The translations under genes and the position numbers were made by a program. A DNA stretch of 64,000 nt from a virus, in IMG/VR virus record IMGVR_UViG_3300009503_000002; one strand, given 5' to 3'. The notes under the pieces are model-generated. The model saw only the letters and a program-made list of their open reading frames with translations. It had not been told where the DNA came from and made no database searches. The first letter of the stretch is position 1. Each line of letters starts with the position of its first letter. Positions 16,329 through 34,057 of the stretch are shown here, piece by piece.

Positions 16329-16357
16329 TTTACATCCCGACACATCCAGAGTATAAT
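16329..16357 (+). promoter_or_regulatory. sigma70-type promoter of the replication/recombination module
   Basis: TTTACA (16329-16334), 17 nt, TATAAT (16352-16357). Confidence 0.6.
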
Positions 16358-16408
16358 CAGGGCGCAAAACAGGGCGTAGGGAAACGACCTAAAATGGAAA
16401 GGAGTACC

Positions 16409-16960: not shown

Positions 16961-16992
16961 CCTTTGCACACCCGAAGCAGCTTCCTGGAACT

Positions 16993-17643
16993 ATGTACAT
17001 TCTTGACACCCGTGAGCCTAAGTCCGTCCATCAGGAGCTTTCAGAAGTCATGGGCGAAGCACCAGTCCGCCACTCCCTTACCGCAGGCGACATCTTGTTC
17101 CCCTCCGAGGGGCTTCTCATCGAGCGCAAAACTGTCCTTGACTTCGCCAGTTCACTAGCAGACGGACGGCTTACCGAGCAGTGTCGGAGCATCTCAAATC
17201 TCAATATCCGTTTCCCGGCCCTCTTAGTTCATGGAAGCCTGCTTCCTAACCGTGATGGGCTAGCAGTCCTCGATGGCCGCGTTTCAGGCTGGAACTTCTG
17301 GTCACTCCAGATGGCTTTGGTCTCAGTCCAGCTCGCAGGTTTGCTCGTCATCACCGTTCCACATTCCATCTGGCCAGAAGCCGTCAAATACCTATCCGAA
17401 TGGGCCCGAAAGTCTCAGCACCTCAAAGCCAAGCCCTTCGAGGCACATCTCTGGCAACAAGGCCCAGCACTTCAAATCCTCACCACCTTGACCGGAAGTT
17501 CCAGCCGCGCGAGCCAAGTCGCCCAGAACTACCCTAACCTCCTCCAAGCCATCAACGACTTCGAGAACTGGTCTAGCCTAAAAGGCATCGGCCCTCATAC
17601 GATGAACCGTATCACTTCCATCCTAAAGGAGCGGATAAGATGA
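16993..17643 (+). CDS. ERCC4/XPF-Mus81-type nuclease with a C-terminal helix-hairpin-helix
   Basis: GDILFPSEGLLIERKTVLDFASSLADGRLTEQ is the GD..ERK..D..S signature. LKGIGPHTMNRITSIL is an HhH. Confidence 0.75.
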   Translation: MYILDTREPKSVHQELSEVMGEAPVRHSLTAGDILFPSEGLLIERKTVLDFASSLADGRLTEQCRSISNLNIRFPALLVHGSLLPNRDGLAVLDGRVSGWNFWSLQMALVSVQLAGLLVITVPHSIWPEAVKYLSEWARKSQHLKAKPFEAHLWQQGPALQILTTLTGSSSRASQVAQNYPNLLQAINDFENWSSLKGIGPHTMNRITSILKERIR

Positions 17644-18710
17644 GAACTTATGATGATGTCTTTCCACCGGGGAGCGTCAGGCCGTATGGCTTGTTCCACG
17701 TCTGCGGACGCCCTGGTGTTGGCAAGTCAACGTTCTGTATCACCGTAGGCGTTTCGCCAGATAGGATTGCGGTTTTCGATTTTGAGAGTTCCTTATCTGG
17801 CGCTCACAGCGCCCTTCACTTCCGCGTCTATCACAACATGGTTGCCGAGTGGACGAAAGACCGTGGCCTCACTGCGCCGCAGCGGGAACTCTACGGCCAT
17901 ATGCTTCGTCTCATCAGCGACTTACCAGAGGGGATTGACTTAATCGTAGTAGATAACATCGAACCGCTAGAAAATGCCCTCGAAGACGCCGTTGAATCAA
18001 ACCCTGAGGCCTACGGCCTTACACAGAGCCAGCTAACTCTCATGAGTGCACTGAAGTGGGGCGCAATCAAACGGCTTTACGCAACACTCATCCAGTTTAT
18101 GTTAGCGAAAGCACCGCTTGTCGGTTTCACATCTCACCTGCGACAGGTCTGGGCGGGCAAGGCCCCTGTGCCAGGTCTCTTCCAGCCACGTGGAAAATCC
18201 GACTTGCTGGAAGCACAGACATTCCTTCGCTTATGGCTGCAGTTTCGACCCGAAGGCCCCGAACCTGCCGCGCTTGTGCTAAAATCCCGTTTGGCTAAGT
18301 ATCAAGTTCAGCCCGACGGCTCGGTAATCCCACAGCCCGTGCTTCCACGCCGTCTCCCTATCGCAACCTGGTCTAAAATCCGCGAATATTTCGAGCACCC
18401 AGCCGACCTTGCCCATCCAGCACCAGGCGAAGCGCTGAGTGAAGAGGAGATTAACTCCCTGCGCGGCACACTCTCGAAAGAGCAGCTTGACTTCGTTCGC
18501 GCAATCCTGAAGTCCAGCACCGTAGACGAAGAGGAAGCGTCAGTAGTCCCAACAGGGCCGAAACTTCCCGCTAACCCAGCCGAGTTCGTCATTCGGGTAA
18601 TGGAAGACTTTGGCCTGACACTTGAGACAGCGCTTGCTAAGCTCGGCAAGAAAATCACAGAGCTTGACCCTGCCCAGGATTACACTAAGCTACAAGCTAT
18701 CTTACAGTAA
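17640..18710 (+). CDS. RecA-fold P-loop ATPase (AAA_24/Sak4-like) with a C-terminal extension
   Basis: Walker A GRPGVGKST and Walker B LIVVDNIE. ATGA overlap with the nuclease gene. Confidence 0.6.
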   Translation: MRTYDDVFPPGSVRPYGLFHVCGRPGVGKSTFCITVGVSPDRIAVFDFESSLSGAHSALHFRVYHNMVAEWTKDRGLTAPQRELYGHMLRLISDLPEGIDLIVVDNIEPLENALEDAVESNPEAYGLTQSQLTLMSALKWGAIKRLYATLIQFMLAKAPLVGFTSHLRQVWAGKAPVPGLFQPRGKSDLLEAQTFLRLWLQFRPEGPEPAALVLKSRLAKYQVQPDGSVIPQPVLPRRLPIATWSKIREYFEHPADLAHPAPGEALSEEEINSLRGTLSKEQLDFVRAILKSSTVDEEEASVVPTGPKLPANPAEFVIRVMEDFGLTLETALAKLGKKITELDPAQDYTKLQAILQ

Positions 18711-18721
18711 GGAGGGCTCTT

Positions 18722-19075
18722 ATGAAACAACAACAGCGCCGTTTCATAGGGGCCTTCCTTCCACTAGATGTCTTTGAAGCTTTCGAGGGGACACGGGCTG
18801 AACGAGGCATCGCAACCCGCTCGGAGGCAGTTTTGGAGGCAATTGTCTTCTGGCTCACGATGAAACCACCTACAACAGGCATCCGCCGCACTATCGCTGA
18901 GGCAGTTCAACTCGTATCAACGGGCCGCGCAGCTAGAGCCGCTCTCGATGCCGCAATCTGGGAGTGGCGGATGTCCAAGAACGAGGAGTTGCTCGTTCGT
19001 ATCGTAGAGCTCGCTGCCCAGGTTAAAAAGGAACTTCCGCCTGATATCCAGGATTACCTTGCGTCCAAGAAATAA
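18722..19075 (+). CDS. hypothetical protein, possible ribbon-helix-helix N-terminus
   Basis: RBS AAGGAGG. FIGAFLPLDVFEAFEGTRAERGIATRSEAVLEAIVFWL is RHH-like. Confidence 0.5.
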   Translation: MKQQQRRFIGAFLPLDVFEAFEGTRAERGIATRSEAVLEAIVFWLTMKPPTTGIRRTIAEAVQLVSTGRAARAALDAAIWEWRMSKNEELLVRIVELAAQVKKELPPDIQDYLASKK

Positions 19076-19078
19076 GCC

Positions 19079-20605
19079 ATGCAATCACCAACCGACGTGG
19101 GACTTCCATTTGAGAAGTGGCGCCCAGGCCAGCAAGAGATGGTCTCAGCAGCCATCTCAAACCACAGCTTGCTGATTATCGAAGCGCCAACAGGCCTGGG
19201 GAAGTCCGCTAACCCCGGTGCAAGCGCATATTTCCAGCCGACTATCGTGATGGTAGCCACACGTGAGCTCCAACAGCAATACGCAAGTTCTTTCCACTTC
19301 CTTCCCATCGTCTGGGGCCAAGAACACTACGCTTGTATTCTACCATCCTTTGTGAGCTACTGGCGCGAGGCATACGGCGAGACTCCCACTCGCCTAGACT
19401 GTCCATATGAACGGCCTAGTGACTGTACACTTGCTGATGATTGCCCCTATGAAAAGGCTAAACACTTCGCCATGGAAAAGCAGCGCCTCGTCACAAATTA
19501 CGCCTATGCATTCTGGACTGAGTGGTGGCGTTCTATCTCCGAAATACCACCCCATTTGTACCTCGACGAAGCACATATGATACCGGACACAATTTGTGGA
19601 CTGTTGACATTTTCGATTCAGCTAAGTACAATTAGAAAGTACAAATTAGACGACCCACCCTTTCTGGCGGGCTCCAATCCCGATGTTGTTCACGATGCGG
19701 CCCGCTGGTGCGAAGAGGCCGCTTCTCAACTCGAACGTTGCCTAGAGAGCTGTTCTGAAAGAGAACAGAAGACAGTCAAGCGCCGTGTGCAATCCCTCTC
19801 TTTTCTCGCTGAACACTTGTCTGAAGCGGGTGAGGATGAGTGGTACATTTTATCTGGCATCTCCCACGACGGCTTCCAAGCCAAGCCCTGCGTTCTGCTC
19901 CCTGAGATTACCCGTCGGATTATGCCACCCGATTGGCCTACTGTCTTGATGTCTGCCACAATTGGAAATCCCCAAGCGCTCTTAGCCGAGCTTGGGTTTC
20001 CAGATGTTCCTTTTGAGTTCCGCACCTTCCCGCACCCTTTTGCACGGGAGTCACGGCCCGTCATCTTTATCAAGAACTCACCACCGCTCTCTAAACACTC
20101 CACACCGCGGGATTATGAGGCGCAGGCTTGGCTCATCCAACGCATTCTCCAGAACCATCCAGGTCAGCGCGGCATCATCCACACAGCATCTTGGTTTCAC
20201 GCTGAAGACCTAGCTAAACGCCTGTCCGTCCATTTCCCAAACCGTATCTTCCTTCCGCGTGGGGTTGACCGTGTAGAGGCAGTGGCAGAGTTCGTCAACC
20301 GCGGCCCAGACACAGTCGCCATCAGCCCATCCTGGTCGCACGGACTTGACCTTCACGATGACCTTGCCCGTTTCTCCATTATCGCAAAAGTCCCATTCCC
20401 CAACTTAGGAGACCCGATTGTCGCAACTAAGCTCAAGCGGTTAGGGCGTGCTTGGTACGACTGGCGCGCTGCCATCAGCATAGTTCAGGCCGCAGGCCGT
20501 ATCGTCCGCCACGAGCAGGACTGGGGCATCACGTATATCGTGGATGGCCACTGGCCACGTGTGAAACGTTTCGCACCACCCTGGTTTGAGGTGAATGAGA
20601 TATGA
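19079..20605 (+). CDS. DinG/XPD (Rad3)-family ATP-dependent DNA helicase
   Basis: EAPTGLGKS (Walker A), YLDEAHM (DEAH), four Cys in the Fe-S position (ACIL, LDCPY, SDCTL, DDCPY), and a C-terminal helicase domain ending QAAGRIVRH. Confidence 0.85.
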   Translation: MQSPTDVGLPFEKWRPGQQEMVSAAISNHSLLIIEAPTGLGKSANPGASAYFQPTIVMVATRELQQQYASSFHFLPIVWGQEHYACILPSFVSYWREAYGETPTRLDCPYERPSDCTLADDCPYEKAKHFAMEKQRLVTNYAYAFWTEWWRSISEIPPHLYLDEAHMIPDTICGLLTFSIQLSTIRKYKLDDPPFLAGSNPDVVHDAARWCEEAASQLERCLESCSEREQKTVKRRVQSLSFLAEHLSEAGEDEWYILSGISHDGFQAKPCVLLPEITRRIMPPDWPTVLMSATIGNPQALLAELGFPDVPFEFRTFPHPFARESRPVIFIKNSPPLSKHSTPRDYEAQAWLIQRILQNHPGQRGIIHTASWFHAEDLAKRLSVHFPNRIFLPRGVDRVEAVAEFVNRGPDTVAISPSWSHGLDLHDDLARFSIIAKVPFPNLGDPIVATKLKRLGRAWYDWRAAISIVQAAGRIVRHEQDWGITYIVDGHWPRVKRFAPPWFEVNEI

Positions 20606-20856
20606 GCAATGAAAACAGTCAGATTATCCAGGTCTTCAACTCTCTTGAGCGGTCTGTTCAAACCGAACTGCTCCGCACTATTTGGCGCAAGTCTGACCCA
20701 CGTCTCAAGCGCTTTCTGGAGAGCTTCGCAAACCAGTTCGCAGGGATGAGTGAGTTCGGAGCTCTTGAGTTACTTCTAAAAGTGACAGTTTACCTAGATG
20801 AGCTCGAAGGAGGCAACCATGCAGAAACCAGGACATGCCACGAAAGCACAGGTTAA
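20602..20856 (+). CDS. hypothetical small protein
   Basis: ATGA overlap with the helicase stop. 84 aa. Confidence 0.45.
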   Translation: MSNENSQIIQVFNSLERSVQTELLRTIWRKSDPRLKRFLESFANQFAGMSEFGALELLLKVTVYLDELEGGNHAETRTCHESTG

Positions 20857-21394
20857 GCAGGCCGTTAGGAAACAAGTGGAGCAGCTCTTAACTCCTCAAC
20901 AGGCTGCCCGCATGCTGGGTGTGTCAGTCCAACGCTTGATGCAGCTCGTGAACAACGGGACGCTGCATCCTATCAGGACACCAGGAGGTCATCGACGTTA
21001 CCTCTACTCTGAGATTAAGGACTTCTTCTCGAAGCTTGAGTTTCCAGTTGCGCTCTACATTCACGTCCAGCCTTATGCTCATGCTGACGAGGCTGAATTG
21101 GAAGCACTTAGGCAAGCAGCCGAGAGGTCCCGCCTCGTAGTCCGGGAGGTCATTGAGGAGAGCACATCCAACCTAGTGCTTCCCCTGCCTGAGCGCCCAG
21201 GCTTCCTTCAGCTCGTAAACCTAGCCTCGGAAAGGAAAATCCGTGGCTTTCTAGTGGACGCAGTCCCTTATATCAGCAACATGAGTGTTGTTCCATGGTT
21301 ATTAGTGCTTGCTCGACTTGGCTTAGTCTGCTTCGAAGTCCCACGTGGAACAGAAGTCGCAGTCCCATTTCCCTATCAGGAGATTGAATGGTGA
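20819..21394 (+). CDS. MerR/excisionase-type HTH fused to a degenerate serine-recombinase (resolvase) catalytic domain
   Basis: ATG 20819 follows GAAGGAGG. LTPQQAARMLGVSVQRLMQLVNNGTLHPIRTPGGHRRY matches the IS607-TnpA-type HTH. The following VALYIHVQPYAH...ERPGF...FLVDAVPYISN aligns to the resolvase fold, but the nucleophile Ser and the DRLxR motif are replaced. Confidence 0.6.
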   Translation: MQKPGHATKAQVKQAVRKQVEQLLTPQQAARMLGVSVQRLMQLVNNGTLHPIRTPGGHRRYLYSEIKDFFSKLEFPVALYIHVQPYAHADEAELEALRQAAERSRLVVREVIEESTSNLVLPLPERPGFLQLVNLASERKIRGFLVDAVPYISNMSVVPWLLVLARLGLVCFEVPRGTEVAVPFPYQEIEW

Positions 21395-22101
21395 ACACAG
21401 GACGTTACTACACCATAAACGGCCAGAAGTACCCTTCTGTAACAACTATTCTGAGCGTCCTAAACAAGCCATTCCTGTTAGAGTGGGCAGTAGCACAGGC
21501 GTTTGAGAAAATGACACAGGACCCGCAATTCACCGCCTCCCTTCTTCTCACACAGCCTCAAGCTCTCAAAAAGTTCTTTGGTTCAGCGGCAGATGAGGTT
21601 CGCGACGAGGCCGCCGAGGTAGGCCGCGGCTTTCATGAGGAAGCCGCCCATTCCCTTCAAACTGGCATCGAAACTGTTGCAGGCAATCGAGTTTCCCAAC
21701 TTCTATCAGAACTCTCCTTAACCCATACTTACAGTGAGGTAGTTGTCCATTCCCGAACTCACTCTTACGCTGGCACGCTGGACATCTTAGCTCTAGACCA
21801 GAAGGGCCAGCATGTGGTGATTGATATCAAAACAGGTCGCTCTGTCCACCTAGAGCATTTTCTCCAAGTTTCTGCTTACGCTTCCGCCGAGTTCCTGGCC
21901 GATACTTTTATGCCGCCTGTGGCATATGGCTTAATTTTCCACATCCGCGAGGCTAGCACAGTCTATCACGTCAACGTCCACGAGCTCTTTCCAACCTTCC
22001 TCGCGGCCCTAAACCTCTTTCGCTTCGCCGAAAGTTTCAAACCCAGTGCCTACAAAATCATCACAATCCAGCCACCTTCCCAATCGTCTGCCGATAAATA
22101 G
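21388..22101 (+). CDS. PD-(D/E)XK nuclease (RecB/Cas4-like exonuclease without a Cys cluster)
   Basis: YAGTLDILALDQKGQHVVIDIKTGRS...QVSAY carries the D...D/E-x-K...Q..Y signature. Confidence 0.7.
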   Translation: MVNTGRYYTINGQKYPSVTTILSVLNKPFLLEWAVAQAFEKMTQDPQFTASLLLTQPQALKKFFGSAADEVRDEAAEVGRGFHEEAAHSLQTGIETVAGNRVSQLLSELSLTHTYSEVVVHSRTHSYAGTLDILALDQKGQHVVIDIKTGRSVHLEHFLQVSAYASAEFLADTFMPPVAYGLIFHIREASTVYHVNVHELFPTFLAALNLFRFAESFKPSAYKIITIQPPSQSSADK

Positions 22102-22130
22102 TTGACAGTTCTACCAAATTAACTTATACT
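22102..22130 (+). promoter_or_regulatory. sigma70-type promoter of the late/packaging operon
   Basis: TTGACA (22102-22107), 17 nt, TATACT (22125-22130). ATG 22140 lies only 9 nt downstream. Confidence 0.5.
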
Positions 22131-22139
22131 CCCTATTCG

Positions 22140-23678
22140 ATGGAAGGGTTAGAGCTCGACAAGCTTGTAGAGCGGGAGCTGCGGCGTGGCATGCGGTCAA
22201 CCGTCATCAAGACGAACTTTAAACCGCTGGAGATTGCGCGCGCAGCATTCCCCTGGACATGGGCATCGTACCAGAAAGATATCCTCGTAACACTTCTCTC
22301 TTCTTCCTGGAACCGAATGGTCATCCTCGCACCACCTCGGCACCGGAAAACTTCCTGTGTAGCTCTCTGGGCAGCGCTTGAACTGGGCAAAAACCCACAC
22401 CAGCGGATTATGGTTGCGTCTCACACACGGGACTACTCAGCCCTGCTTCTCAACCAGATTGAGGAGATAATGAAAACGCCTATCTACCGTAGGACATTCG
22501 GTGATATCCTCCCTTCTCAGTGTTACGCTGGCCAGTCAGACCAGGGCGCTTCGTTGACTTCTTCGGTTGCCCGCTGGACGACATACGAGCGCCACTTACC
22601 CAACAGGCCCGTGCACATCAAAGACCCCTCGCTTCTAGCACTCTCGCCTGAGTCGGGGACGCCAGGCTTTGGAGCCGACATCATCATCTGCGATGACCTA
22701 GTGAGCCAGGCCAACTCTTCGTCCGAGACAAAACGTCGGAACTTAGAACACTGGTTCCGTGCGTCTCTCCTCAAGCGGCTGGAGCCAAACGGCAGGTGCG
22801 TGGTAGTCGGTGCCCGCTTCTACAAAGATGACCTCTACGGTGTTTTGCTCAAGGAAGGTTGGACTGCAAAAGTCTATCGTGCATCACCAGACGCCCCGCT
22901 CTGGCCAGAAGTATGGCCTGCAGAATCCCTCCGCCAGAAGCAGCTCGAAGACCCAATCTTCTACCCAGCCCAGTATCTGCAAGACCCACAGGAAGTTGGA
23001 AGTGGCGAGTTCGACCCATCCTGGTTTCAGTTCTATACACAACCACCGCCTGTTACCGAAATGTCAATCTTCGGAGGGATTGACCCTGCCATCACTGAGG
23101 GCACTGGCTCAAGTGTCGCATATGCAGTTGTTGGCAGGACAGCAAGCGGCCAGATTCTGCTTCTCGACCTTGCCCAAGAGAGCCTCCGAGGTTCCCAGCT
23201 TCTCAACATTGTAAATCTAATCCAGGATGCCTGGGCTCCTGTAGCCATCGCATTTGAATCGAACGGCCCGCAGCAGACAATCTTAGAGATGTTACAAGCA
23301 GACCCCAACCTTCGCCCTGGGACCAACCTAATCGGAGTCCCATCCCTCGTCTCGAAATACCTCAGGCTTACGAGCATTGCGGCATATGCTCGTTCGGGGA
23401 AGATACTGCTTCCTGCTACGTTCTCTCACAACGGCGAACTTATCCCGGCAGAGATTTCATCAACTCTCCTGGAAGCTTGGGCCCGTTTTCCAGGTGGTAA
23501 GCAAGACATACTAGATGCATTTGAGAAAGCTACTACGATGGCCTTACAGGGCCCGCTCCCTGCGATGTCAACCACTAGCATTCGCCAGAACCCCAGGCGA
23601 GGCCGTTCTGCAATGGGCAAGTCGTTCCCAAGGGTGTTCGACCATGTAAAGCCAAATGTCCTCTCTCCAGCAGATTGA
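22140..23678 (+). CDS. terminase large subunit
   Basis: 512 aa. N-terminal ATPase (LAPPRHRKTS P-loop-like, ADIIICDDL Walker B). C-terminal RNaseH-like nuclease (FGGIDPA..., AIAFESNG). Sits at the head of the structural module. Confidence 0.8.
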   Translation: MEGLELDKLVERELRRGMRSTVIKTNFKPLEIARAAFPWTWASYQKDILVTLLSSSWNRMVILAPPRHRKTSCVALWAALELGKNPHQRIMVASHTRDYSALLLNQIEEIMKTPIYRRTFGDILPSQCYAGQSDQGASLTSSVARWTTYERHLPNRPVHIKDPSLLALSPESGTPGFGADIIICDDLVSQANSSSETKRRNLEHWFRASLLKRLEPNGRCVVVGARFYKDDLYGVLLKEGWTAKVYRASPDAPLWPEVWPAESLRQKQLEDPIFYPAQYLQDPQEVGSGEFDPSWFQFYTQPPPVTEMSIFGGIDPAITEGTGSSVAYAVVGRTASGQILLLDLAQESLRGSQLLNIVNLIQDAWAPVAIAFESNGPQQTILEMLQADPNLRPGTNLIGVPSLVSKYLRLTSIAAYARSGKILLPATFSHNGELIPAEISSTLLEAWARFPGGKQDILDAFEKATTMALQGPLPAMSTTSIRQNPRRGRSAMGKSFPRVFDHVKPNVLSPAD

Positions 23679-23688
23679 AGGAGGCAAG

Positions 23689-24045
23689 ATGCGAAAACTA
23701 ATAGCACTGCTTAATAAACTTAGGGAGACACGAAGCCCAGTCTTCACCGAAATTGGGATAAAGCCAGGCGTTGCGGTGAAATTGCGGGATTTTGAGAGCA
23801 CGTTTGGCTCGTTCCGCATCTGGCTTGACTTACACAACGTTCACAGCGGCGATGAGTTCCTGCTCAAGGTTTATATCAGGCCAGCGCCAGGTTCTGAGCT
23901 TCTTCTCTTCGAGTCAACCTCAATCAAGGACACACCAGAGGAGTTAGTAGGTTTTTCGGTAGGGTCCTGCAGTGGCTTCCAGCTCGAACTTCAGATGGTC
24001 AGCGGACGTCCTCTCACAATCCCAATCTCAGTATACCCGCTGTAA
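23689..24045 (+). CDS. hypothetical protein
   Basis: ATG 23689 follows GAAGGAGG. 118 aa. Confidence 0.5.
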   Translation: MRKLIALLNKLRETRSPVFTEIGIKPGVAVKLRDFESTFGSFRIWLDLHNVHSGDEFLLKVYIRPAPGSELLLFESTSIKDTPEELVGFSVGSCSGFQLELQMVSGRPLTIPISVYPL

Positions 24046-24057
24046 AGGAGTGGAGAA

Positions 24058-25338
24058 ATGCCAGAGCTTTTCAGAGCAGAGACAAACGCGGGTTCCGATT
24101 CGGTATGGGTGCCAGTTGGTGGTGCAGCATCTGGACAAGCGGTTCTTGATGAGGCAACTCGGCAGGCTGCCAGGTCAGTCTCACGCGCGCTAGCCTCATC
24201 CTCCCCGTTCTACGCTAGGATTATAGACAGCATCCTAGATTCAGTCATCACGCCTGGCACCAATGCGAGACTCTTAGACGAGACGGTTGCTCCAGTCGAG
24301 CGAGCACTTACTTGGCTGTGGGAAGATGGGCCTTCAGCCCTTGCACCTAACGCGCGGAACCTGTTACGTACTCTTATCGTGGACGGCGAACTTATCCTCC
24401 AGCCTATTGTCAACCAAGCTGATGGCCGCCTTGCTCTCGACCTGCTTGACCCGGAGCGAATAATCGAAGTGACACCCGCGCCGGGTTTGTATAACGTCCA
24501 TTCCATCACTTACGATGATGGCGAAGCTACAAAACCTAAGCAGCTTAGGGTCATTCAGCGCGCGATGCTGAACATCTCTGACCTGTCTGGTGATATCTTC
24601 TATTTTCGCCTGTTCCCGGTTGGTTATACTGCCGGGACAGTTCGAGGCATCCCATTGCTCACGCCTTGTCTCGACCTTATTTCGGCTTTCACCGAGTTTG
24701 CTTATAAGCGTGTCTCAATCCTTACCAAATTAGCAACGTTCTATTGGGAAGTCGTGCTGGAAGGTGCGAGCCAGGAGAAGATTGACCTGTTCCTAGATTC
24801 GCCACAATCAGCGCCACCTGATGGCGGCCAGGTTTTCGCCCACAATGAGCGAGTAACGTGGAAACTTGTAGTTCCGGAACTTCGCGATATTTCCTCCGAG
24901 AGCGGCTTCTGGTTTGAGACCATCAGTGGTGTAACTGGCCTTACCCCAGAGTTTCTGGGCAAAACAAGCAGCCGAAACCTAACCTCCGAATCGCTCTACA
25001 CGTCTCTGCTCCACCTGAGCGCCCTCCAGTCGGAGTTCTTTTTCGTCTTTCGGACAATTACCCAGTACGCATTAGAAGTTGCATGTCGCCGTGCAGTAGG
25101 CCATCCGAAAGTCCCACGCTTCGAGATTATCTCAACAACGCCAGGAAGTAGGTCGCTCCAACGCGCAGCATCCTCAATCAACACACTCGCAAATGCCCTA
25201 AGCCGTGCAGTAGAAGCGAACCTAATCTCTGAGAAGGAGGCGCAGGAAGCGCTCCGTTCCTTACTGCTGACCTTCGGGTTAGGGGGAGAGGAAGAGAGAG
25301 CGCCGGTTACAGCAAGTATTGAACCGCTTGTGAGGTAA
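24058..25338 (+). CDS. putative portal protein
   Basis: 426 aa in the synteny position after the terminase. RBS AAGGAG. Called on size and position only. Confidence 0.55.
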   Translation: MPELFRAETNAGSDSVWVPVGGAASGQAVLDEATRQAARSVSRALASSSPFYARIIDSILDSVITPGTNARLLDETVAPVERALTWLWEDGPSALAPNARNLLRTLIVDGELILQPIVNQADGRLALDLLDPERIIEVTPAPGLYNVHSITYDDGEATKPKQLRVIQRAMLNISDLSGDIFYFRLFPVGYTAGTVRGIPLLTPCLDLISAFTEFAYKRVSILTKLATFYWEVVLEGASQEKIDLFLDSPQSAPPDGGQVFAHNERVTWKLVVPELRDISSESGFWFETISGVTGLTPEFLGKTSSRNLTSESLYTSLLHLSALQSEFFFVFRTITQYALEVACRRAVGHPKVPRFEIISTTPGSRSLQRAASSINTLANALSRAVEANLISEKEAQEALRSLLLTFGLGGEEERAPVTASIEPLVR

Positions 25339-25340
25339 CG

Positions 25341-28300
25341 ATGGTAACTTTGAAAGTCCCATTTGTTTCGGTTCAGTGGCCTGAGATAGCCGATGGCCTA
25401 ATCAGAGGGAAGTTTGACACAATCCTGAAGTCAAGAGATTTCATGCAGTTCGTGCAAAAGCCCATCTTTCTTGTCTCACCAATAGGTGTCCATGGAAAAG
25501 TATTGCTTTCGCGACCACATGAAATCTCAGTGCGAGAGGCTATCGAGCTCAAGTCCCGCCACGGCCTGAGTGAGGACATCATTCGACATCAATGGCCTGG
25601 TGCGCCCAAGCTATATGCTTTCACAGTTGTCATCATTGAGGCGTTCAAGGAACCATTGGCTGCTGAGCTTCCTATACCACTGCCAGCCTTTGGCGAGTCG
25701 GTCACATTCAAGAACAAGGCACCCTCTGATATCTCAGCGATTGCTGACCTTGAGACTTATGACCCTGACAAAGCGACGAGGCAGCAACGCCTCGATGACT
25801 GGCGCATTCTCATTGCCCATTATGCAAACCACCTAGCAGGCCGAAAGACTCCTTACCCGAAGGACTTAATCATCAAGAAGGCCATCGAGCTCGCCCAAGC
25901 TATGCGCGAAGACGGTGTGGTTTTCCATCCTGATACCATGACACCCGCAGGCCAGGACTTGTTCGAGAAGGTCTTGGCCAAATTACCAGACTTACCCCAC
26001 ACTCTGACCGACGAGGAACTCTCTACACCAATTGGAAACGTAAAACGTCTCTCACTTCAGCGCCTCAAAGCACTTCATCAGAACTTACATCTCACTTGGC
26101 AACAGAAGGAGAAAAGCGAAGAAGTTGCAAACCTTCACATTGCAGTCGTAGATGCTCTCCACTCCAAAGGGCAGAAAGTTGACTGCCCAGATGATGGGCT
26201 AGGAAAAGCGCTGCCTAGTTACCCTACAAAGACGAGTGTGGCTGACGAACCTGAGGTCACCTTCACTGCTTATGAGAATGCGGTGTCACTAATCGGCTCA
26301 ACTGTCTATGCACAGTTTGCTGATGTAGAACCTCATGATGTAGATATCCTGTTTCGTGACATCCCTTCAGAGCCGCTCGCCCACTATCTCGCATCTCACG
26401 TTGACCCTACACTGCCTGTACACATCTCACTCGAATCGACTGGCCCAAACTGGGATTACATTGGCTTAGGGGACTACGTGCTCTCAAACACCGAGCCAGA
26501 AGCACAAGTTGAGGATGCAGTCCTTAGGGGATTGCTTGACGTTAAACCATTTCTCGTCAAGCCTAGCTTCGTGACCACTTCTGATAACACCCTATTCGTG
26601 GACTCATTCCCAGCATCTGGCCTTGAGCTGAAGCTTAGTCGGTGGTTCAAGAAGCCTGTCCAGTTTCTTTTGGAGGGCGAGGAACCTGTCTTAGACTTGT
26701 GGTTCGTTCCACGGCGAAAGATTACCCTGAATTTCCTAGAGAATGATGACAAGTTTCGGCGCGCGTACTTCAACTTGTCACAGGAGATAAAAGCCAGCAT
26801 CAAGCCAGGAAAACCGTTCAGACCGTTAAAGGCCCAAGGCGGCTATCACATTGGAGAGTTCTACACCGTTGAAGACGCCATTACCTTTTGGGCAACGCCA
26901 GAACGGTTGCGTGAAGGGATTCTCGTCGAGCCAAAGGTAGATGGTATCCGCCTTGTCCTCCACAAGCAGGATGATAAAGTCTGGATTTTTACAGAGGATA
27001 AGCAGCGAGACCGTGCAGAAGTGCTACCTATGCTGGTCGAAGCCGCACGGAAGCTCAAGCATGATGTAGTCTTGGACATGGAGACAGTTGAATACGATGA
27101 CGAGGGCAACCCTATCCCACGCCATGAGATGGTAGAACTCGTTGTCTCAAAGTCACCACCCAAGCGTAAGCTGATTGCCTGGGTTCACGACTGCTTGTTC
27201 CTTGATGGGAAGGACTTATCTGGCCAACCAGCAATCGAACGCATCCGAACTGTTCATGAGTTGCTTAGCGAGGGAATCCTTCGTCCTATGCCGTTCCGTT
27301 TGGTGAGAACTGCTGATGACCTCAAGAGGGCGTTTGAGTGGGCTAGCACTTTCCGTGAAGGTGCCTCGGAAGGTGCAATGCTGAAAGAGGCAAACTCTCC
27401 TTACTCTGGCGAGCTCACACCAGCCTGGGCTAAAGTGAAGCTAGTTCGGGAAATCAAGGTTCAGGTGATTGGCATTCTGCGCAAAGCGATGCCCTGGCAT
27501 GAGAAGCCAGCGGGTGAGCTCAGAGGTACTGAGGCAATTCAGGCTTATAAGAGGCTAGCCCAGGACTCCGATACCTATTTAGTCAGAGGTGCAATCCTTG
27601 GGCCAGATGGGAAGCTAAAGCCCATTGAGGCTAAGCGTGAGCTCATGCCAGGAGACCTAGAGCTACGCTGGACTGGCTCGGAGTGGCGGGGCCTGGAGTG
27701 TCCGGAGATTTGGCAGATGGCACCAGGTTGGCCGCACCGTAAGCCTGGTGAGCTAGCATACGGGACTACATATGCATTGGCATTCCCTGAAGGGCCTCCT
27801 AAGTTCGGTGACATTGTTACAGTCCGCCCAATGGAGATGCAAATCTTCGAGTGGGGCGGTGAACAGCATGTTGCCTGGATGTTCCCCATTCTGCAAGAGG
27901 TGGACCCAACACGTCGGAAGCCCGACACCTGGGAAGATGTCCTACGGATTGTTGAGTTCACGAAAAAACGACACAAAGGCGTTCCAACCAAAGAGGAAGT
28001 TGGGATTTCTGAGGGTGTACGTGTTCCGCTTACCCGCGACGAAGCAAGGGTTGCTACTAAGAAGAAACTAGGCTATGACTGGTACGTAGTGAGGCAGCCG
28101 CCAAAGAAGACCGTTGACTTCGTGATGCAGCTGCACATCCGAGGAATTGTGACGCCTGATGGCGCACCATACTTGCGTAAGTTGCTCCAGACTGCAAAGA
28201 CGGATGAGGAGCGGAAGAAAATCTGGGCTGACTGGGGCCTCTGCACGCTCAGAATACCATTACCTGAGCTCTCGAAGAAGCTTCAGGAGCTGGATGACGA

Positions 28301-29000
28301 ACGGAAGGCGCTTAGCCTCACACAGTTTATTAGCCAAGACCCTAAAGAGGAAGGAGAGGTTTACTCCTACGGAAATTGTCACGTTGACCTGCGGCTGCGG
28401 CATCCGACTGAGGAGTTCCTAGTTGGCTGGACATGTGACATCGTCAAAATTGTGCTCCAACCACTTGATGAGATTGGGGCCTTTATCTTCCCGCTGCGTA
28501 ACAGAATACTCCAGAACCAGGAGGGAGACCAGTGGCTCTCTCAACAGAAGCTCAGCCAGCCTCTCGTCTGGCTTGAGATTGTCTCACCGCAGAAGAAGAA
28601 GTTTTGGCGGGAACCTGGTGAGGTAGGCGCAACAAGGAAAGCAGGCGCCTGTTTCGTCTTTGCAGCACGTGGACAAGCAGTGTATGGCGTTCAGAAGTCA
28701 GAACACTATCACGAGTACTTCCTTCGTTTCGATGAGTTTGGCGATGTAGAGCACCATCAAGCCAAGCTGCTTAATGGCCGTTGGGATTTCAAGTACATCG
28801 AAGGAGAGTATGAGAAGACCGGTGGTGATTGGTACTGGCAAGGTGCTCGGCCATGGAAAACACAGGTCCCATATATCCTGACGCATGACTTCGAGACGGA
28901 AGCTGCGAAGGAACGACGCGCAGGCCGCCAGTGGGAGTGGAACGCCAACACTATTTCTGCAACAGAGGTTCTGTTCGGAAAGCATTGGTGGGAAGGGTAG
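25341..29000 (+). CDS. 1219-aa multidomain protein: Pol-beta-type nucleotidyltransferase motif, ATP-dependent DNA ligase, and a LigD-type 3'-phosphoesterase-like C-terminus
   Basis: LIGSTVYAQFADVEPHDVDILF carries the GS...DxD nucleotidyltransferase motif. The ligase motifs are I EPKVDGIR (Lys codon 26934-26936), III VVLDMETV, IIIa WVHDCLFLDG, IV SEGAMLKE and V WAKVKL. The C-terminal FVMQLH...HVDLRL...HYHEYFLRF..LNGRWDF resembles the LigD phosphoesterase domain. Confidence 0.8.
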   Translation: MVTLKVPFVSVQWPEIADGLIRGKFDTILKSRDFMQFVQKPIFLVSPIGVHGKVLLSRPHEISVREAIELKSRHGLSEDIIRHQWPGAPKLYAFTVVIIEAFKEPLAAELPIPLPAFGESVTFKNKAPSDISAIADLETYDPDKATRQQRLDDWRILIAHYANHLAGRKTPYPKDLIIKKAIELAQAMREDGVVFHPDTMTPAGQDLFEKVLAKLPDLPHTLTDEELSTPIGNVKRLSLQRLKALHQNLHLTWQQKEKSEEVANLHIAVVDALHSKGQKVDCPDDGLGKALPSYPTKTSVADEPEVTFTAYENAVSLIGSTVYAQFADVEPHDVDILFRDIPSEPLAHYLASHVDPTLPVHISLESTGPNWDYIGLGDYVLSNTEPEAQVEDAVLRGLLDVKPFLVKPSFVTTSDNTLFVDSFPASGLELKLSRWFKKPVQFLLEGEEPVLDLWFVPRRKITLNFLENDDKFRRAYFNLSQEIKASIKPGKPFRPLKAQGGYHIGEFYTVEDAITFWATPERLREGILVEPKVDGIRLVLHKQDDKVWIFTEDKQRDRAEVLPMLVEAARKLKHDVVLDMETVEYDDEGNPIPRHEMVELVVSKSPPKRKLIAWVHDCLFLDGKDLSGQPAIERIRTVHELLSEGILRPMPFRLVRTADDLKRAFEWASTFREGASEGAMLKEANSPYSGELTPAWAKVKLVREIKVQVIGILRKAMPWHEKPAGELRGTEAIQAYKRLAQDSDTYLVRGAILGPDGKLKPIEAKRELMPGDLELRWTGSEWRGLECPEIWQMAPGWPHRKPGELAYGTTYALAFPEGPPKFGDIVTVRPMEMQIFEWGGEQHVAWMFPILQEVDPTRRKPDTWEDVLRIVEFTKKRHKGVPTKEEVGISEGVRVPLTRDEARVATKKKLGYDWYVVRQPPKKTVDFVMQLHIRGIVTPDGAPYLRKLLQTAKTDEERKKIWADWGLCTLRIPLPELSKKLQELDDERKALSLTQFISQDPKEEGEVYSYGNCHVDLRLRHPTEEFLVGWTCDIVKIVLQPLDEIGAFIFPLRNRILQNQEGDQWLSQQKLSQPLVWLEIVSPQKKKFWREPGEVGATRKAGACFVFAARGQAVYGVQKSEHYHEYFLRFDEFGDVEHHQAKLLNGRWDFKYIEGEYEKTGGDWYWQGARPWKTQVPYILTHDFETEAAKERRAGRQWEWNANTISATEVLFGKHWWEG

Positions 29001-29014: not shown

Positions 29015-29881
<867 letters not shown>

Positions 29882-29916: not shown

Positions 29917-30306
29917 ATGTTGGAAGAGGTAAAGTGTGGGTTACAGATGTTAATCCCCCATGCAACTGATTCGTCAGTCGCAAAACCGACCCGCGTTCTG
30001 GCGAACATCGTAGCGCTTGCCCAAGAAGGCGGAAAGGTTGACGTTGGTGAAGCGTTCGCTGCCACCAATGCGCTCCTGGCCGCTGCACAAGCTGAAGCCC
30101 TGAGCAAGGAGGAAAAGAAAGCCCTAGTTGACCTCCTCAAAAAGCTTCTTCTGTACCTAGCAGGCCGTTATGAGTACTACTACCAGAAGTACGGCTATAA
30201 GTATGGGACTTATAAGAAGCCTGAGTATGGTAAGCCAGAATATGGTGAACCAGAGGAGAAGAAGGCAAAGGCTGAGGTTCGTTTAGCGATACCCCCCTGG
30301 AGATAA
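29917..30306 (+). CDS. hypothetical protein with a Tyr/Lys-rich C-terminus
   Basis: RBS AAAGGAGGAAAGGG. C-terminal YEYYYQKYGYKYGTYKKPEYGKPEYGEPEEKK. Ends just after a C7 run. Confidence 0.55.
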   Translation: MLEEVKCGLQMLIPHATDSSVAKPTRVLANIVALAQEGGKVDVGEAFAATNALLAAAQAEALSKEEKKALVDLLKKLLLYLAGRYEYYYQKYGYKYGTYKKPEYGKPEYGEPEEKKAKAEVRLAIPPWR

Positions 30307-30362
30307 CCGCTGACCTTCACGAGGCCACGGATGAGTCCGAAGGCCTTGAGTGGGATGTCAGG

Positions 30363-32309
30363 GTGATTGCTTCAGGTGAGACCGTTGATGGACGTGACTT
30401 CTATCCTCCCGACACTCTGCGGCGTGCGGCCGAGAAGTTCGACGGTGTTCAGTGCTTCACTGACCATCCCGATTCGGTGGTTGGTTCGGTGACGCGCTTA
30501 GCTGGTTGGCTCTCCGACCCGAAGCTTGTGGAGACAGATGGTCGTGTTGAGATTCACGAAGTCCTGCACGTCCTTGCCAGCTCAGAAGCAAGCGCTCTGC
30601 TGCGTGAAATTTACCAGCGGAACGCTCTTCACACAGTTGGCCTGTCTATCAATGCCCGTGGGCAAGTTCACTTTGAAAACCGGAACGGGCGAATGGTTCG
30701 AGTGATTGACGAAATCGAAGCGGTTGACTCAGTTGACATCGTCACCAAACCAAACGCTGGGGGTGCTATCCTCCGTCTGCGTGCAGCCGTTTCCGAAGCA
30801 GCCGATGCGCTAAGCGTGAATGTGTTTGACATTCAGCGCTTACAAGAGCTTCTAGCGAAATTAGAGGCCGAACTCAGCGAGCCTGCTGTAGAACCAGCTG
30901 TTGCGACGGAGGAAGCAGAAGTTGCAAAAGTTTCTAAGAAGGAGGAAGAAGTGGAAATAGAAGCTTTGAAGAAAGAGATTGAAGAGTTGAAGAAAGCCCT
31001 CACCGCTGAGCAGGCGCAGCGTGAGATTGAGGCTGCAATCAAGGAGGCGGCGTTGCCAGAGCCCCTTGAGAAATCTGCGCGTTCGCGGCTGCTGAATGTG
31101 ACAGATGTCCGCACAGCTCGTGCAATTCTGCAAGAGGTGAAAGATGCTTGGGCACTAGCGACTGAAGCGGCGAAGCTTAGCACGCCAACCTTGCATGCAG
31201 TGGAGCAACCGAAGCGGAAGATTCTCCGTTTGCAGGCAATGCTAGCGGGTGAGCCAATCGAGGGTGTCGAGCCGTACATTTCGCTTCGTGATGCGTACGG
31301 CGACATCACTGGGCGCAGCGATGTCTTTCGGATGGCCAACAATGAACTGGCTTCGGAGCTTATCCGCGCGAGCCAGGGCTTTGACTCGGCACGCATCCGT
31401 GAGACAATCGAGACCAGCGACTGGTCTTACGCTCTCGGCCAGGCAATCCACCGTGAGCTAATCCGCCAGTACAAGATGCCAGCCTATGACGAGTGGCGGT
31501 TGGTTTGCTCCCGCATTGGGGCAGTCCCGGATATGCGGACGCAGGACCGCCTGCGCTTCTCGTACTTCAACCTGCTGCCTGAGGTAGGCGAGAATGGCAC
31601 GTATCAGCCAGCCAGCGACCCGTCCGAGCAGCGGGCCTACTTCACACCGTCGAAGTACGGCATGCTGGTATCCTGGACTTGGGAGTCGGCACTGAATGAT
31701 GACCTGAACGCCCTGCGTGAGATTCCGCGGCGGCTAGCCCTGAGCGCAAAGGTCACGGTGTGGTACAACGTGCTGAGCATCTTCACTAGTGCAACACCGC
31801 CAACCTGCACGTATGATGGTGCTGCGCTCTTCAGTGCAGACCGTGGGAACCTGGTAACCGATGACCTGTCGGTAACTACCTTTGGCGAAGCCCGCGCTTG
31901 GATGCGTGAGATGACAGCCTACGGCTCGAACTACGCCTACCTTGGGGCATCGCCGAAGTACCTGCTGGTCCCACCTGAGAACGAGCGGATGGCCCGCACG
32001 CTGCGGAACTCGGAGTACCTGGTCGAAGGTAGCTCGCTCGTGGAGAACCCGTGGGCTGGGAGCTTCGAGATTATCGTGGTCCCATTCTGGTCGGACGAGG
32101 ATGCCTGGGCTGTAGTGGCTGACCCACAGAACATACCGACTATCGAGGTTGCCTTCCTGGGCGGACGTGAGGAACCTGAGCTCTTCACCGAAGCGCCGAA
32201 CACTGGTTCCGGCTTCACCGCTGACAAGGTGACCTACAAGATTCGGCATGTCTGGGGCTACTGCATCCTCGACCACCGCGGGATGTACAAGAGCACAGGT
32301 GCTTCCTAA
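30363..32309 (+). CDS. fused prohead protease-like N-domain, coiled-coil scaffold and major capsid protein
   Basis: The N-terminal WDVRVIASGETVDGRDFYPPDTLRRAAEKFDG is typical of phage head maturation protease/scaffold N-termini. A Glu/Lys-rich coiled-coil follows, then about 400 aa of capsid-like sequence. The frame is open, and protease-like sequence is present, from 30276, upstream of the GTG 30363 start. Confidence 0.7.
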   Translation: MIASGETVDGRDFYPPDTLRRAAEKFDGVQCFTDHPDSVVGSVTRLAGWLSDPKLVETDGRVEIHEVLHVLASSEASALLREIYQRNALHTVGLSINARGQVHFENRNGRMVRVIDEIEAVDSVDIVTKPNAGGAILRLRAAVSEAADALSVNVFDIQRLQELLAKLEAELSEPAVEPAVATEEAEVAKVSKKEEEVEIEALKKEIEELKKALTAEQAQREIEAAIKEAALPEPLEKSARSRLLNVTDVRTARAILQEVKDAWALATEAAKLSTPTLHAVEQPKRKILRLQAMLAGEPIEGVEPYISLRDAYGDITGRSDVFRMANNELASELIRASQGFDSARIRETIETSDWSYALGQAIHRELIRQYKMPAYDEWRLVCSRIGAVPDMRTQDRLRFSYFNLLPEVGENGTYQPASDPSEQRAYFTPSKYGMLVSWTWESALNDDLNALREIPRRLALSAKVTVWYNVLSIFTSATPPTCTYDGAALFSADRGNLVTDDLSVTTFGEARAWMREMTAYGSNYAYLGASPKYLLVPPENERMARTLRNSEYLVEGSSLVENPWAGSFEIIVVPFWSDEDAWAVVADPQNIPTIEVAFLGGREEPELFTEAPNTGSGFTADKVTYKIRHVWGYCILDHRGMYKSTGAS

Positions 32310-32753: not shown

Positions 32754-32797
32754 GGAAAGAAAGTGCCATATAACTGTCAAGTTTGGAAAGGAGAAGT

Positions 32798-34057
32798 ATG
32801 CGAATCCTATTGGCTTCTAACTCATCCTGGTCACCTTCTGGGTATGGCGTTCAAGTGCGGAGTGTGGTTCCACGGCTACGAGATGCGGGCCATGACATTG
32901 CGGTCTCGGCATTCTGGGGTTTACAAGGCGGCATCATTGAGTATGATGGAGTTCGGCAGTACCCTGCCGGTTTTGCCCCCTATGGGAACGATGTGATTCC
33001 GCTTCATGCGCGAGACTTCCGGGCTGATATTGTGATTGCCCTGATTGACATATGGGTTTATGGGCCAGAGCTCTTTAAGCAGTGTCGGGTGGTGCCATGG
33101 TCGCCTGTTGACCACCACCCCGTGCCTGGCCCAGTCTTGGAACGATTTCAACGTTCGTTCCGGGTCTTTGCCTACTCGAAGTTCGCAGTTAGGGCATTGG
33201 AGGAGGTGGGGTTCACAAACGTTGATTACGTTCCGTTAGGCGTCGAGACAAATGAGTTCAAGCCGATGAACAAAGAGGAATGCAGACGGGAGTTCGGGAT
33301 TCCTAACGACCTCTTTGTCTTTGGGATGGTGGCAGCCAATCAGACGCAGTTTCCAACTCGTAAAGGGTTCGAGCGGGCGATGGCTGCATTTGCCAGCCTA
33401 AGGCGGAAATACCGCGATACTCTCCTTTATATACACTCCTACATCGGTACAGAACTAGGTGGCGTGCCACTGGCAAAGCTAGCAGAGGTATTCCAAATCC
33501 CAGACCATTGCATGTTCTCCAATCCTGACATTTGGCGTGTTGGCGGGTTAAGCAGGGACCAGCTAGCCAGGCTGTATAACTGTTTCGATGTCCTGATTGC
33601 ACCATCAAGTGCTGAGGGGTTCTGTATCCCATTGATTGAAGCCCAAGCGTGCGGCGTGCCCGTTATCACCTCGAACTTTACTTCCTGTCCAGAGCTTTGC
33701 GCTTCTGGATGGCTAGTCGAGCCTGCCACGCTTCTTATGACACCCATGCTCTCGTTTCAGGCTGCCGTTTCTATCAAGGAGCTTGAAGCAAGGATGCTCT
33801 TTGCAATCGAGAACCCCGGTATCCTTGCTGAGGAGAAGAGAAAAGCACGAGAGTTCGCCCTCAGTTACGACTGGGACAAAGTGATGGCTGAGTACTTCCT
33901 CCCCGCAATCTCAAATCTAGAGGCCAAAATTCGTGGGCCACAAAACTTGCTAGAATCTGTAGAATATGCTAAAGTAACAGCTGGAGGGCTAATTAGTGGC
34001 GGTCGAAATCAACAGCATAGTCGAGCTGGTCAAGGGGATGATACCGGAGCTACGTAA
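32798..34057 (+). CDS. GT-B fold glycosyltransferase, family 4-like
   Basis: MRILLASNSSWSPSGYG N-terminus and APSSAEGFCIPLIEAQACGVPVITSN (E-x7-E). ATG 32798 follows GGAAAGGAG. Confidence 0.85.
   Translation: MRILLASNSSWSPSGYGVQVRSVVPRLRDAGHDIAVSAFWGLQGGIIEYDGVRQYPAGFAPYGNDVIPLHARDFRADIVIALIDIWVYGPELFKQCRVVPWSPVDHHPVPGPVLERFQRSFRVFAYSKFAVRALEEVGFTNVDYVPLGVETNEFKPMNKEECRREFGIPNDLFVFGMVAANQTQFPTRKGFERAMAAFASLRRKYRDTLLYIHSYIGTELGGVPLAKLAEVFQIPDHCMFSNPDIWRVGGLSRDQLARLYNCFDVLIAPSSAEGFCIPLIEAQACGVPVITSNFTSCPELCASGWLVEPATLLMTPMLSFQAAVSIKELEARMLFAIENPGILAEEKRKAREFALSYDWDKVMAEYFLPAISNLEAKIRGPQNLLESVEYAKVTAGGLISGGRNQQHSRAGQGDDTGAT

Follow-up and report, generated by a model that had tools for sequence, protein, structure and literature searches.

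A phage head-operon protein that combines an ATP-dependent DNA ligase with a divergent LigD phosphoesterase-like domain

Results

A ligase and a phosphoesterase-like domain in one head-operon protein

The 64,000-nucleotide stretch of viral DNA analyzed here (IMG/VR virus record IMGVR_UViG_3300009503_000002, referred to below as the window) encodes, directly after a probable portal gene, a 1,219-residue protein in which an ATP-dependent DNA ligase is followed by a homolog of the LigD 3'-phosphoesterase (PE) domain that has kept its metal-binding triad, and preceded by a domain with an ASCH fold. Its relatives are strongly modular, and many of them end in a prohead protease. These observations are compatible with a head-associated enzyme that would heal and seal the ends of the phage's own DNA at entry, a reading that we regard as evenly poised between right and wrong. 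The protein and its parts are as follows (window coordinates, strand, residues of the protein).

25341..29000, + strand: entire open reading frame (ORF) of the multidomain ligase-containing protein; 1219 aa, ATG start, uninterrupted
25341..25715, + strand: ASCH (PUA-like beta-barrel) domain, residues ~1-125, recognized by Foldseek
25728..26225, + strand: conserved helical module "B" with a DDWRI..AHY motif, residues ~130-295; confident AlphaFold2 (AF2) helices
26238..26510, + strand: minimal Pol-beta-type nucleotidyltransferase-like module, residues ~300-390
26295..26300, 26337..26339 and 26343..26345, + strand: its motif residues G319-S320, D333 and D335
26787..27485, + strand: ATP-dependent DNA ligase adenylyltransferase domain, residues ~483-715, with the motif I lysine K532 at 26934-26936
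27486..28010, + strand: putative OB domain, residues ~716-890, carrying large insertions and a motif-VI-like WMFP..DPTRRKPD; reach of phrog_114 to residue 888
28023..28970, + strand: divergent LigD-type PE-like domain, residues ~895-1210
28146..28370, + strand: insertion, mostly helical by AF2, that interrupts the beta1-beta2 hairpin of the PE-like domain (residues 936-1010); ~75-78 residues

The identity of the central domain as an ATP-dependent DNA ligase is unambiguous in its sequence. PF01068 matched residues 524-700 (E=7.3e-19; 68.7 bits against a curated cut-off of 26.2), phrog_114 ("ATP-dependent DNA ligase") spans residues 523-888, and several NCBIfam ligase models matched as well (best E=1.5e-22), all below their curated family cut-offs. 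A ligase profile built from eleven family members matched 43 ligases in the PDB, with the Pyrococcus furiosus enzyme (2cfm, E=1.1e-30) at the top and human LIG1 after it, whereas the LigD ligase domain of Mycobacterium tuberculosis (1vs0) reached only E=9e-15. By these profile comparisons, the ligase is closest to the Lig1/archaeal type and not to the LigD type. Motifs I (K532-V-D-G), III (LDMETV, residues 578-583), IIIa (FLDG inside VHDCLFLDG, residues 615-623), IV (EGAMLK inside SEGAMLK, residues 676-682), and V (WAKVK, residues 696-700) are invariant in the relatives and occur in the correct order, and the OB-region module is conserved in the relatives too. This bears out a preliminary description of the window, which had recognized the ligase by this motif set. 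All of the motif strings that it quoted, including those of the domains discussed below, were located in the translation, with the K532 codon where it had placed it, and they fall on invariant or near-invariant columns across the relatives.

The C-terminal domain is a remote homolog of the LigD phosphoesterase

Sequence comparison indicates that the homology between the C-terminal tail and the LigD PE domain is real but remote and transitive, becoming visible only through relatives that lack the insertion in the beta1-beta2 hairpin. The tail carries the strings FVMQLH (residues 927-932), HVDLRL (1014-1019), and LNGRWDF (1144-1150). Pfam and NCBIfam scans of the N-terminal, middle, and C-terminal pieces of the window protein gave no PE match at E<=10 and, for the C-terminal piece, no match of any kind, Pfam searches of 22 long-form PE-like segments gave no LigD_N (PF13298), and the long-form profile from these 22 relatives retrieved nothing from the PDB sequences. 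The AF2 model of the C terminus (pLDDT 92.2, pTM 0.89) is beta-rich, with a strand order compatible with the eight-stranded beta-barrel of the PE fold.

In 17 of the 150 best relatives, ~78 residues that lie between FVMQLH-IRG and HVDLRL in the window protein are missing, and the insert-free module reads fVlQxHfRGkSvHxDlR..LvGWT (H-x-R-G-x-S-x-H-x-D-x-R). PF13298 was the only Pfam match of the insert-free segments, found below threshold in three of eight (E=3.4e-4 to 7.4e-3) and also in a fourth relative (P0084); the four matches scored 16.9-22.3 bits against a gathering threshold of 31.1. The insert-free profile retrieved only PE-type chains from the PDB (3p43, E=4.2e-4; 3p4h, 3ta5, and 3ta7, 7.7e-4); its match to 5dmp (E=0.28) was not significant, and the printed 5dmp sequence shows PE motifs. 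We compared alignments of the long form, which includes the window protein, and of the insert-free form (A1 and A3, respectively) by hhalign with a reference set of 120 genuine stand-alone PE proteins, all of them with PF13298 and 86 of them used in this comparison. The insert-free form aligned with genuine PE at a probability of 97.1% (E=7.7e-11, 112 columns) and with the long form at 99.9% (E=3e-34). Neither the direct comparison of the long form with PE nor those with three unrelated control alignments were significant.

Both forms, long and insert-free, share H932, H1014, D1016, and R1018 without exception. The first three align with His42, His48, and Asp50 of the Pseudomonas enzyme PaePE, which bind Mn, and R1018 aligns with Arg52 (PMC3300020). 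The family has further invariant residues in this domain (R934, G935, and E1125, with H1124 nearly invariant), and its barrel has extra N- and C-terminal elements relative to PE. On these alignments, we classify the domain as a divergent branch of the PE superfamily that lies below the curated family threshold, and it is probably a metal-dependent phosphoesterase. The LigD phosphoesterase tail proposed in the preliminary description thus holds as a true homology, by way of the insert-free relatives, although direct Pfam, NCBIfam, PDB, and Foldseek searches all fail to find it and two of the six residues that are essential in PaePE are replaced.

An ASCH fold, a helical module, and a nucleotidyltransferase-like module form the N-terminal half

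The AF2 model of the N-terminal half, made from 22 sequences, has good confidence up to residue 290 and poor confidence thereafter; pLDDT exceeds 88 at residues 1-120 and falls to ~72 at residues 121-140. Foldseek matched residues ~1-125 of this model to ZmASCH in the PDB (5y6b/5guq, E=1.5e-5, probability 1.0) and further to TTHA0113 (2dp9, TMt 0.68), EF3133, and EOLA1. The modeled structure thereby shows an ASCH fold, for which the N-terminal piece gave no Pfam sequence match at E<=10. The helical module B that follows recurs in relatives, at times in another order. It has no Pfam match, and the Foldseek matches at E<=0.02 were ASCH-domain proteins only, none attributable to B. This succession of an ASCH domain and a helical module takes the place of the MuF/gp7-like N terminus that had been suggested earlier: no MuF domain (PF04233) was found in the window protein at E<=1 or in 31 relatives at E<=1e-3.

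The GS..DxD stretch noted in the preliminary description (LIGSTVYAQFADVEPHDVDILF, residues 317-338) is present and conserved in the family. The G, D, D, R, and GP positions of the module, including G319-S320, D333, and D335, are invariant in 25 relatives, and D378 is nearly so, which matches the hG[GS]-x9-13-DxD motif and later carboxylate of the Pol-beta-type fold. Profile and fold support for that fold is weaker, however. NTP_transf_2 matched 6 of the 25 relatives below threshold (best E=1.1e-3) and Polbeta matched 2 of them, neither model matched the window's own segment, the profile of the module gave nothing significant in the PDB, and the Foldseek matches to the minimal nucleotidyltransferase MntA (probability 0.33-0.54) lie on a low-confidence part of the AF2 model. 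From motif and model together, a Pol-beta-type nucleotidyltransferase fold is plausible, not established.

The relatives form a modular family with C-terminal prohead protease fusions

An exhaustive HMMER search returned 1515 cluster representatives at E<=1e-3, 541 at E<=1e-10, and 148 at E<=1e-30, among them full-length relatives at 50-52% identity; the weaker matches probably include ordinary ligases. A word-indexed homologue search gave one relative, and a peptide-pattern scan of viral contigs gave none. The protein is nonetheless not an orphan, as the 148 representatives at E<=1e-30 show. The same 1219-aa protein is present, identical, in two assemblies, and on this ground, together with that of the full-length relatives, we rejected a fusion of two genes or a miscalled ORF. 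When 185,579 species genomes were scanned with one back-translated motif, the single match, in a Lachnospiraceae metagenome-assembled genome without a family ORF, was due to chance; this is a narrow test that does not establish absence from cellular genomes. The relatives make up a protein family from uncultivated phages.

We mapped domains in the 150 best relatives and Pfam partners in 31. The proteins reach 2643 residues and are assembled from seven kinds of module, namely ASCH, helical B, nucleotidyltransferase-like, ligase, OB, and PE-like modules and additional partners, which vary in combination and order and are at times duplicated. The Pfam partners were an XkdF-type prohead protease (15 of the 31 relatives), a Dam-class methyltransferase (13), a metallo-beta-lactamase (11), and, more rarely, NUDIX (4), a Dcm methyltransferase (2), and UDG (1), plus inteins. 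The methyltransferases are thus fused into the same polypeptide in relatives. Among the 150, the XkdF-type protease occurs in 37 and is the last domain in all 37, usually directly after the PE-like module. Judged by their domain matches, the family's partners are DNA-protecting or DNA-repair enzymes, and shuffled modules of this sort are the signature of "polyvalent proteins" (Iyer et al. 2017).

The metallo-beta-lactamase domain stands before ASCH in the 11 relatives that have it (e.g., P0112, L008 2834-6118) and gives a faint match to the anti-Pycsar protein Apyc1, whose family consists of cyclic-nucleotide phosphodiesterases. The closest full-length relative, P0003, has a weak remnant of the domain, which is lost in the window protein. 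In another locus (L010 1029-3786), one ORF encodes the ligase domain (309 aa) and another, overlapping it, an OB-plus-PE-like part (622 aa, P0038), either through a natural split or through a frameshift.

The ligase gene lies in the head operon, directly after the portal

The genes around the ligase gene are those of a phage head module.

22140..23678, + strand: terminase large subunit TerL, start of the head operon; phrog_38, E=5e-71
24058..25338, + strand: probable portal protein of 426 aa, after TerL; weak match to Phage_portal_2, E=6e-4
29018..29881, + strand: N6/N4 DNA methyltransferase, 17 nt downstream of the ligase gene; PF01555, E=8e-70
29917..32309, + strand: prohead protease/major capsid protein fusion gene; phrog_4523, phrog_133, PF25209; split by a 1-nt indel in the window

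A profile of the portal ORF and its homologues retrieved only portal proteins from the PDB (best E=0.004), and pairwise comparison of the ORF with a Pfam-supported Portal_Mu protein was marginal (E=0.02). Its homologues carry no Pfam label; one adjoins TerL in locus L021. From these comparisons, we identify the 426-aa ORF as the portal with moderate confidence. The ligase ORF and its position directly after the putative portal, from which the earlier reading of the locus had started, are confirmed, with the portal identity itself at that moderate level. The ligase gene starts 2 nt past the portal stop codon and is free of promoter-like and terminator-like sites on its + strand, which argues that it is coupled to the portal operon; the portal ORF holds two weak + strand promoter-consensus matches (24437-24464 and 24681-24696). 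The ligase gene is part of the head operon and occupies the slot of Mu gp30 and SPP1 gp7.

The protease-capsid fusion gene, which has Mu gpT-like and Phage_capsid_4 matches, is followed by genes for a glycosyltransferase and a tail tube protein and by a 1675-aa ORF in the tape-measure position. In the window, therefore, the protease is fused to the capsid protein and not to the ligase protein.

The post-portal position of the family is conserved. In the window as well as in L004, L005, L007, L008, and L021 (the L008 portal has Portal_Mu and Phage_portal matches), a ligase-family gene stands directly after the portal; in L002, L009, and L011, it lies a few genes further on. It follows the portal in every locus that reaches upstream to the portal gene. 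In L009 and L011, the ligase gene with its fused protease lies just before two genes in scaffold and capsid positions, and no other called gene of the retrieved stretch has a protease Pfam match on record. In HK97-type assembly, the prohead protease can do its work only within the procapsid, so that a large cargo attached to its N-terminal side would probably be encapsidated as well. Fusion to a portal, a MuF domain, or a capsid-processing serine peptidase has been taken as a sign of head packaging and injection, for NUDIX domains among others (PMC9503650). Conserved synteny and the protease fusions of the relatives thus lend real, if circumstantial, support to the packaging and co-injection suggested in the preliminary description; for the window protein, packaging is predicted from its homology to these relatives.

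L009 and L011 also encode a second giant protein directly after the portal (1211-1264 aa; L009 3423-7217 and L011 3398-7033; in both loci, the ligase protein carries the XkdF protease). It has only faint HipA_C and weak LepB_N (kinase-like) matches and may be another head cargo protein.

Other features of the operon and genome

Between 30280 and 30310, a 1-nt indel distinguishes the window (GAGGTTCG) from the ENA assembly of the same phage (GAGGTTTCG). Because of it, the protease/major capsid protein gene of the window is divided into a 129-aa ORF (29917-30306) and a 648-aa ORF (30363-32309); it is a single 797-aa ORF in the ENA contig, and the genes of related phages encode 716-790 aa. The indel could stem from an error in sequencing, from strain variation, or from a slippery site. 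A near-consensus sigma-70-like promoter (TTGACA-17-TATACT, 11/12) lies at 22102-22130, in the 38-nt gap upstream of the terminase gene; across the region, promoter-like sites are no more numerous than in shuffled sequence. Glycosyltransferase genes stand amid the capsid and tail genes at 32783-34057 (GT4) and 47394-48041 (GT2), and the GT4 gene is kept at the same place in the related contig L004.

This genome is available in two assemblies, of 64,600 and 64,580 bp, that are circularly permuted relative to one another. The second, independent assembly (L012, L013; JGI 3300005573 Ga0078972_1002281, 64,580 bp) is the same genome with another start point, and the genes at the two ends of the window are contiguous in it, so the genome, of about 64.6 kb, is complete, with either circular permutation or terminal redundancy. 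It encodes three DNA methyltransferases: two of the Dam class (MethyltransfD12) near the left end, at 471-1385 (- strand) and 1988-2899 (+ strand), and the N6/N4 enzyme at 29018-29881 (+ strand). The + strand carries essentially every gene, yet GC skew turns negative over 14001-26000 (12 kb) and is positive elsewhere. At 7408-9731, an ATPase gene (phrog_1297) is followed by a gene for a putative metallopeptidase protein (DUF2201/DUF2201_N), whose PHROGs label, "HNH endonuclease," conflicts with Pfam.

Discussion

A possible role at genome entry

The evenly balanced reading with which we began can be set out as follows. The protein would be a late-operon "polyvalent" enzyme of the head module, composed of an ASCH nucleic-acid-binding barrel, a helical module, and nucleotidyltransferase-like, ligase, and PE-like parts. 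It would be made together with the portal and capsid proteins, built into the procapsid, and carried into the cell along with the genome. There, the PE-like domain would restore a 3'-OH at ends blocked by a 3'-phosphate or 3'-ribonucleotide, and the ligase, through an adenylylated K532, would seal nicks or rejoin cohesive breaks, so that the incoming genome would be resealed after host nuclease attack, or its ends closed, before phage gene expression. We infer the catalytic activities of the PE-like and nucleotidyltransferase-like modules, the encapsidation, the injection, and the substrate. The resealing step has a parallel in the PhiKMV gp17 ligase, which by itself confers tolerance to EcoRI and Cas12a cuts (bioRxiv 10.64898/2026.09.21.753257). 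Generalized to the family, this would make the proteins an undescribed class of capsid-delivered DNA-repair cargo, in which a ligase and a re-tooled PE with ASCH and nucleotidyltransferase accessories, often tethered to a protease, would rejoin restriction, CRISPR, or other nuclease cuts before gene expression as a sequence-independent counter-defense; we advance this proposal tentatively and think it more apt to be wrong than right.

Several observations weigh against an enzyme that heals and seals DNA ends on entry. The window protein has no XkdF protease, no MuF domain, and no recognizable targeting signal, and the methyltransferase gene in the same operon indicates that nonstructural genes can sit there. 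The GenBank phage-genome collection gave only ligase-domain matches, with no cultured phage carrying the family. In the ligase, the OB/motif VI region has no PF04679 match and its profile alone finds nothing in the PDB, so that its assignment as an OB domain is one of position. Restriction cuts leave 3'-OH ends, for which no PE is needed. When the confident C-terminal AF2 model was compared by Foldseek, neither the PDB nor BFVD yielded a PE structure (best E=0.54 and 0.04; TM <0.15). In PaePE, His84 and Tyr88 matter for each of the two esterase activities (PMC3300020); the family has invariant Q1073 and W1077 in their place (QPxxW instead of HPxxY), and these are the two of six essential-residue tests that the domain fails. 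Because of these substitutions, the PE-like chemistry may differ or may have been lost.

Alternatives to a packaged repair enzyme

It is possible, if on balance unlikely, that the protein is a late cytoplasmic repair enzyme that stays out of the capsid and mends concatemeric DNA before or during packaging or finishes recombination-dependent replication. Nicks impair packaging, and the ligase gene is co-transcribed with those of TerL and the portal. The free-standing methyltransferase gene of the operon and the lack of a known capsid-targeting domain in the window protein fit such an enzyme as well, as does a gene content in which the precomputed Pfam matches of the window's called genes include no DNA polymerase and no second ligase and recombination functions are represented by AAA_24, a PD-(D/E)XK exonuclease, ERCC4, a Holliday-junction resolvase, and a RuvB-like protein. 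A nonpackaged enzyme leaves unexplained, however, why 37 of 150 relatives are fused to the N-terminal side of a prohead protease, why their domains are shuffled in the manner typical of injected polyvalent effectors, and why the post-portal slot is kept across phages whose portals can barely be aligned.

A packaged or early-acting protein might instead circularize the genome, by a process resembling nonhomologous end joining or by cos sealing, independently of host nuclease damage. The linear DNA enters with its ends exposed, the LigD tool kit is mimicked by the set of ligase, PE-like, and nucleotidyltransferase-like modules, and the mycobacteriophages Omega and Corndog reportedly use a phage Ku with host LigD. 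We nevertheless consider circularization as the sole role improbable, given that no Ku-like gene appears in the precomputed Pfam matches of the window's called genes, that the ligase is nearer to Lig1/archaeal enzymes (E=1e-30) than to the LigD ligase domain, and that the two assemblies are circularly permuted. Such permutation fits headful packaging with terminal redundancy, in which case circularization would proceed by recombination and not by end joining. Even further down the scale, and in our estimate very improbable, is the repair of RNA ends, for which the T4 Pnk/Rnl1 system had been offered as an analogy in the preliminary description: ASCH would bind RNA, the PE-like domain would remove a 3'-phosphate or 2',3'-cyclic phosphate, and the ligase would seal tRNA or mRNA. 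ZmASCH, the closest structural match of the ASCH domain, is reported to be a single-stranded-RNA ribonuclease. PE enzymes act on 3'-ribonucleotide ends (PMC3300020). The ligase, though, falls within the ATP-dependent DNA ligase family and outside the Rnl families, with its closest counterparts among Lig1/archaeal-type DNA ligases; RNA_ligase (PF09414) and mRNA_cap_enzyme matches were marginal and confined to 2 of 31 relatives; there is no 5'-kinase module; and the fusion partners are DNA methyltransferases and UDG. The ligase type and these DNA-directed partners make the analogy one that we do not favor.

Comparison with known systems

Like LigD, which unites POL, PE, and LIG domains, the window protein has end-healing and end-sealing modules in one polypeptide; it differs in that its PE-like domain is C-terminal to the ligase and in that the ligase is Lig1/archaeal-like. 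A bona fide LigD was rejected, with no Pfam match to an AEP-type POL domain or to Ku in the protein, in 31 relatives, or among the precomputed matches of the window's called genes. The stand-alone archaeal PE proteins (PaePE, 3N9B; CkoPE, 3P43; MbaPE, 3P4H) are homologous to the PE-like domain, which has kept their His-His-Asp triad and Arg. What sets it apart from genuine PE is the replacement of His84 by Gln and of Tyr88 by Trp, the insert of ~75 residues between beta1 and beta2, and its encoding in a phage head operon.

The polyvalent proteins resemble the family in their large size, their multidomain make-up with shuffled, duplicated, and swapped modules, and the location of their genes with portal and capsid genes; their partners also include DNA methyltransferases and NUDIX, and they too are predicted to be packaged and then injected (PMC5512222). 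The anchor differs, being in many relatives a C-terminal XkdF-type prohead protease and not MuF. The window protein has only its adjacency to the portal as a head link of the polyvalent type, whereas the XkdF anchor is seen in 37 of 150 relatives. In the polyvalent-protein paper, the word "ligase" occurs three times, with a text passage on RNA ligases and one occurrence in the reference list, and "LigD," "ASCH," and "XkdF" are absent (PMC5512222). Phage ATP-dependent ligases, the PE superfamily, ASCH domains, and polyvalent proteins are each known singly; their combination, the re-tooled PE site, the recurrent fusion of ligase, PE, and prohead protease, and the head-operon slot were not found described in the literature searched, which included PMC5512222.

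SPP1 gp7 and Mu gp30 (MuF) occupy the same slot directly downstream of the portal, and the likeness extends to the Mu-type portal of L008 and the Mu gpT-like capsid protein of the window. The MuF family carries C-terminal effector domains; the window protein and 31 relatives are without PF04233. The PhiKMV gp17, T4, and T7 ligases are phage ATP-dependent DNA ligases able to reseal nuclease-made double-strand breaks in phage DNA, as the ligase of the window protein is proposed to be, but they are single-function enzymes without its end-healing, ASCH, or nucleotidyltransferase modules. Their genes are among the early or DNA-metabolism genes, and to our knowledge these ligases are not virion associated. 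Closest in concept are P1 DarB and T4 Alt and internal proteins, head-carried enzymes that act on or for the incoming DNA before phage gene expression. The chemistry of DarB and Alt is different (methyltransferase/helicase and ADP-ribosyltransferase, respectively), and their packaging was shown experimentally, whereas that of the window protein is predicted.

Implications

Phages are known to protect their DNA early in infection by DNA modification, by injected inhibitors (Ocr and DarB-type proteins), and by nucleus-like shelters. If the protein described here is packaged and active, repair would be a further means of guarding the phage genome during those first minutes of infection, and the ligase-dependent tolerance of CRISPR and restriction cuts would be tied to a delivery that is independent of gene expression. 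Even without packaging, the LigD phosphoesterase superfamily gains a branch in which the metal site is kept and two catalytic residues are changed, which poses a question of structure and function, and a DNA ligase is added to the catalog of polyvalent-protein domains. The C-terminal prohead protease fusions, finally, point to a natural means by which foreign enzymes could be loaded into capsids.

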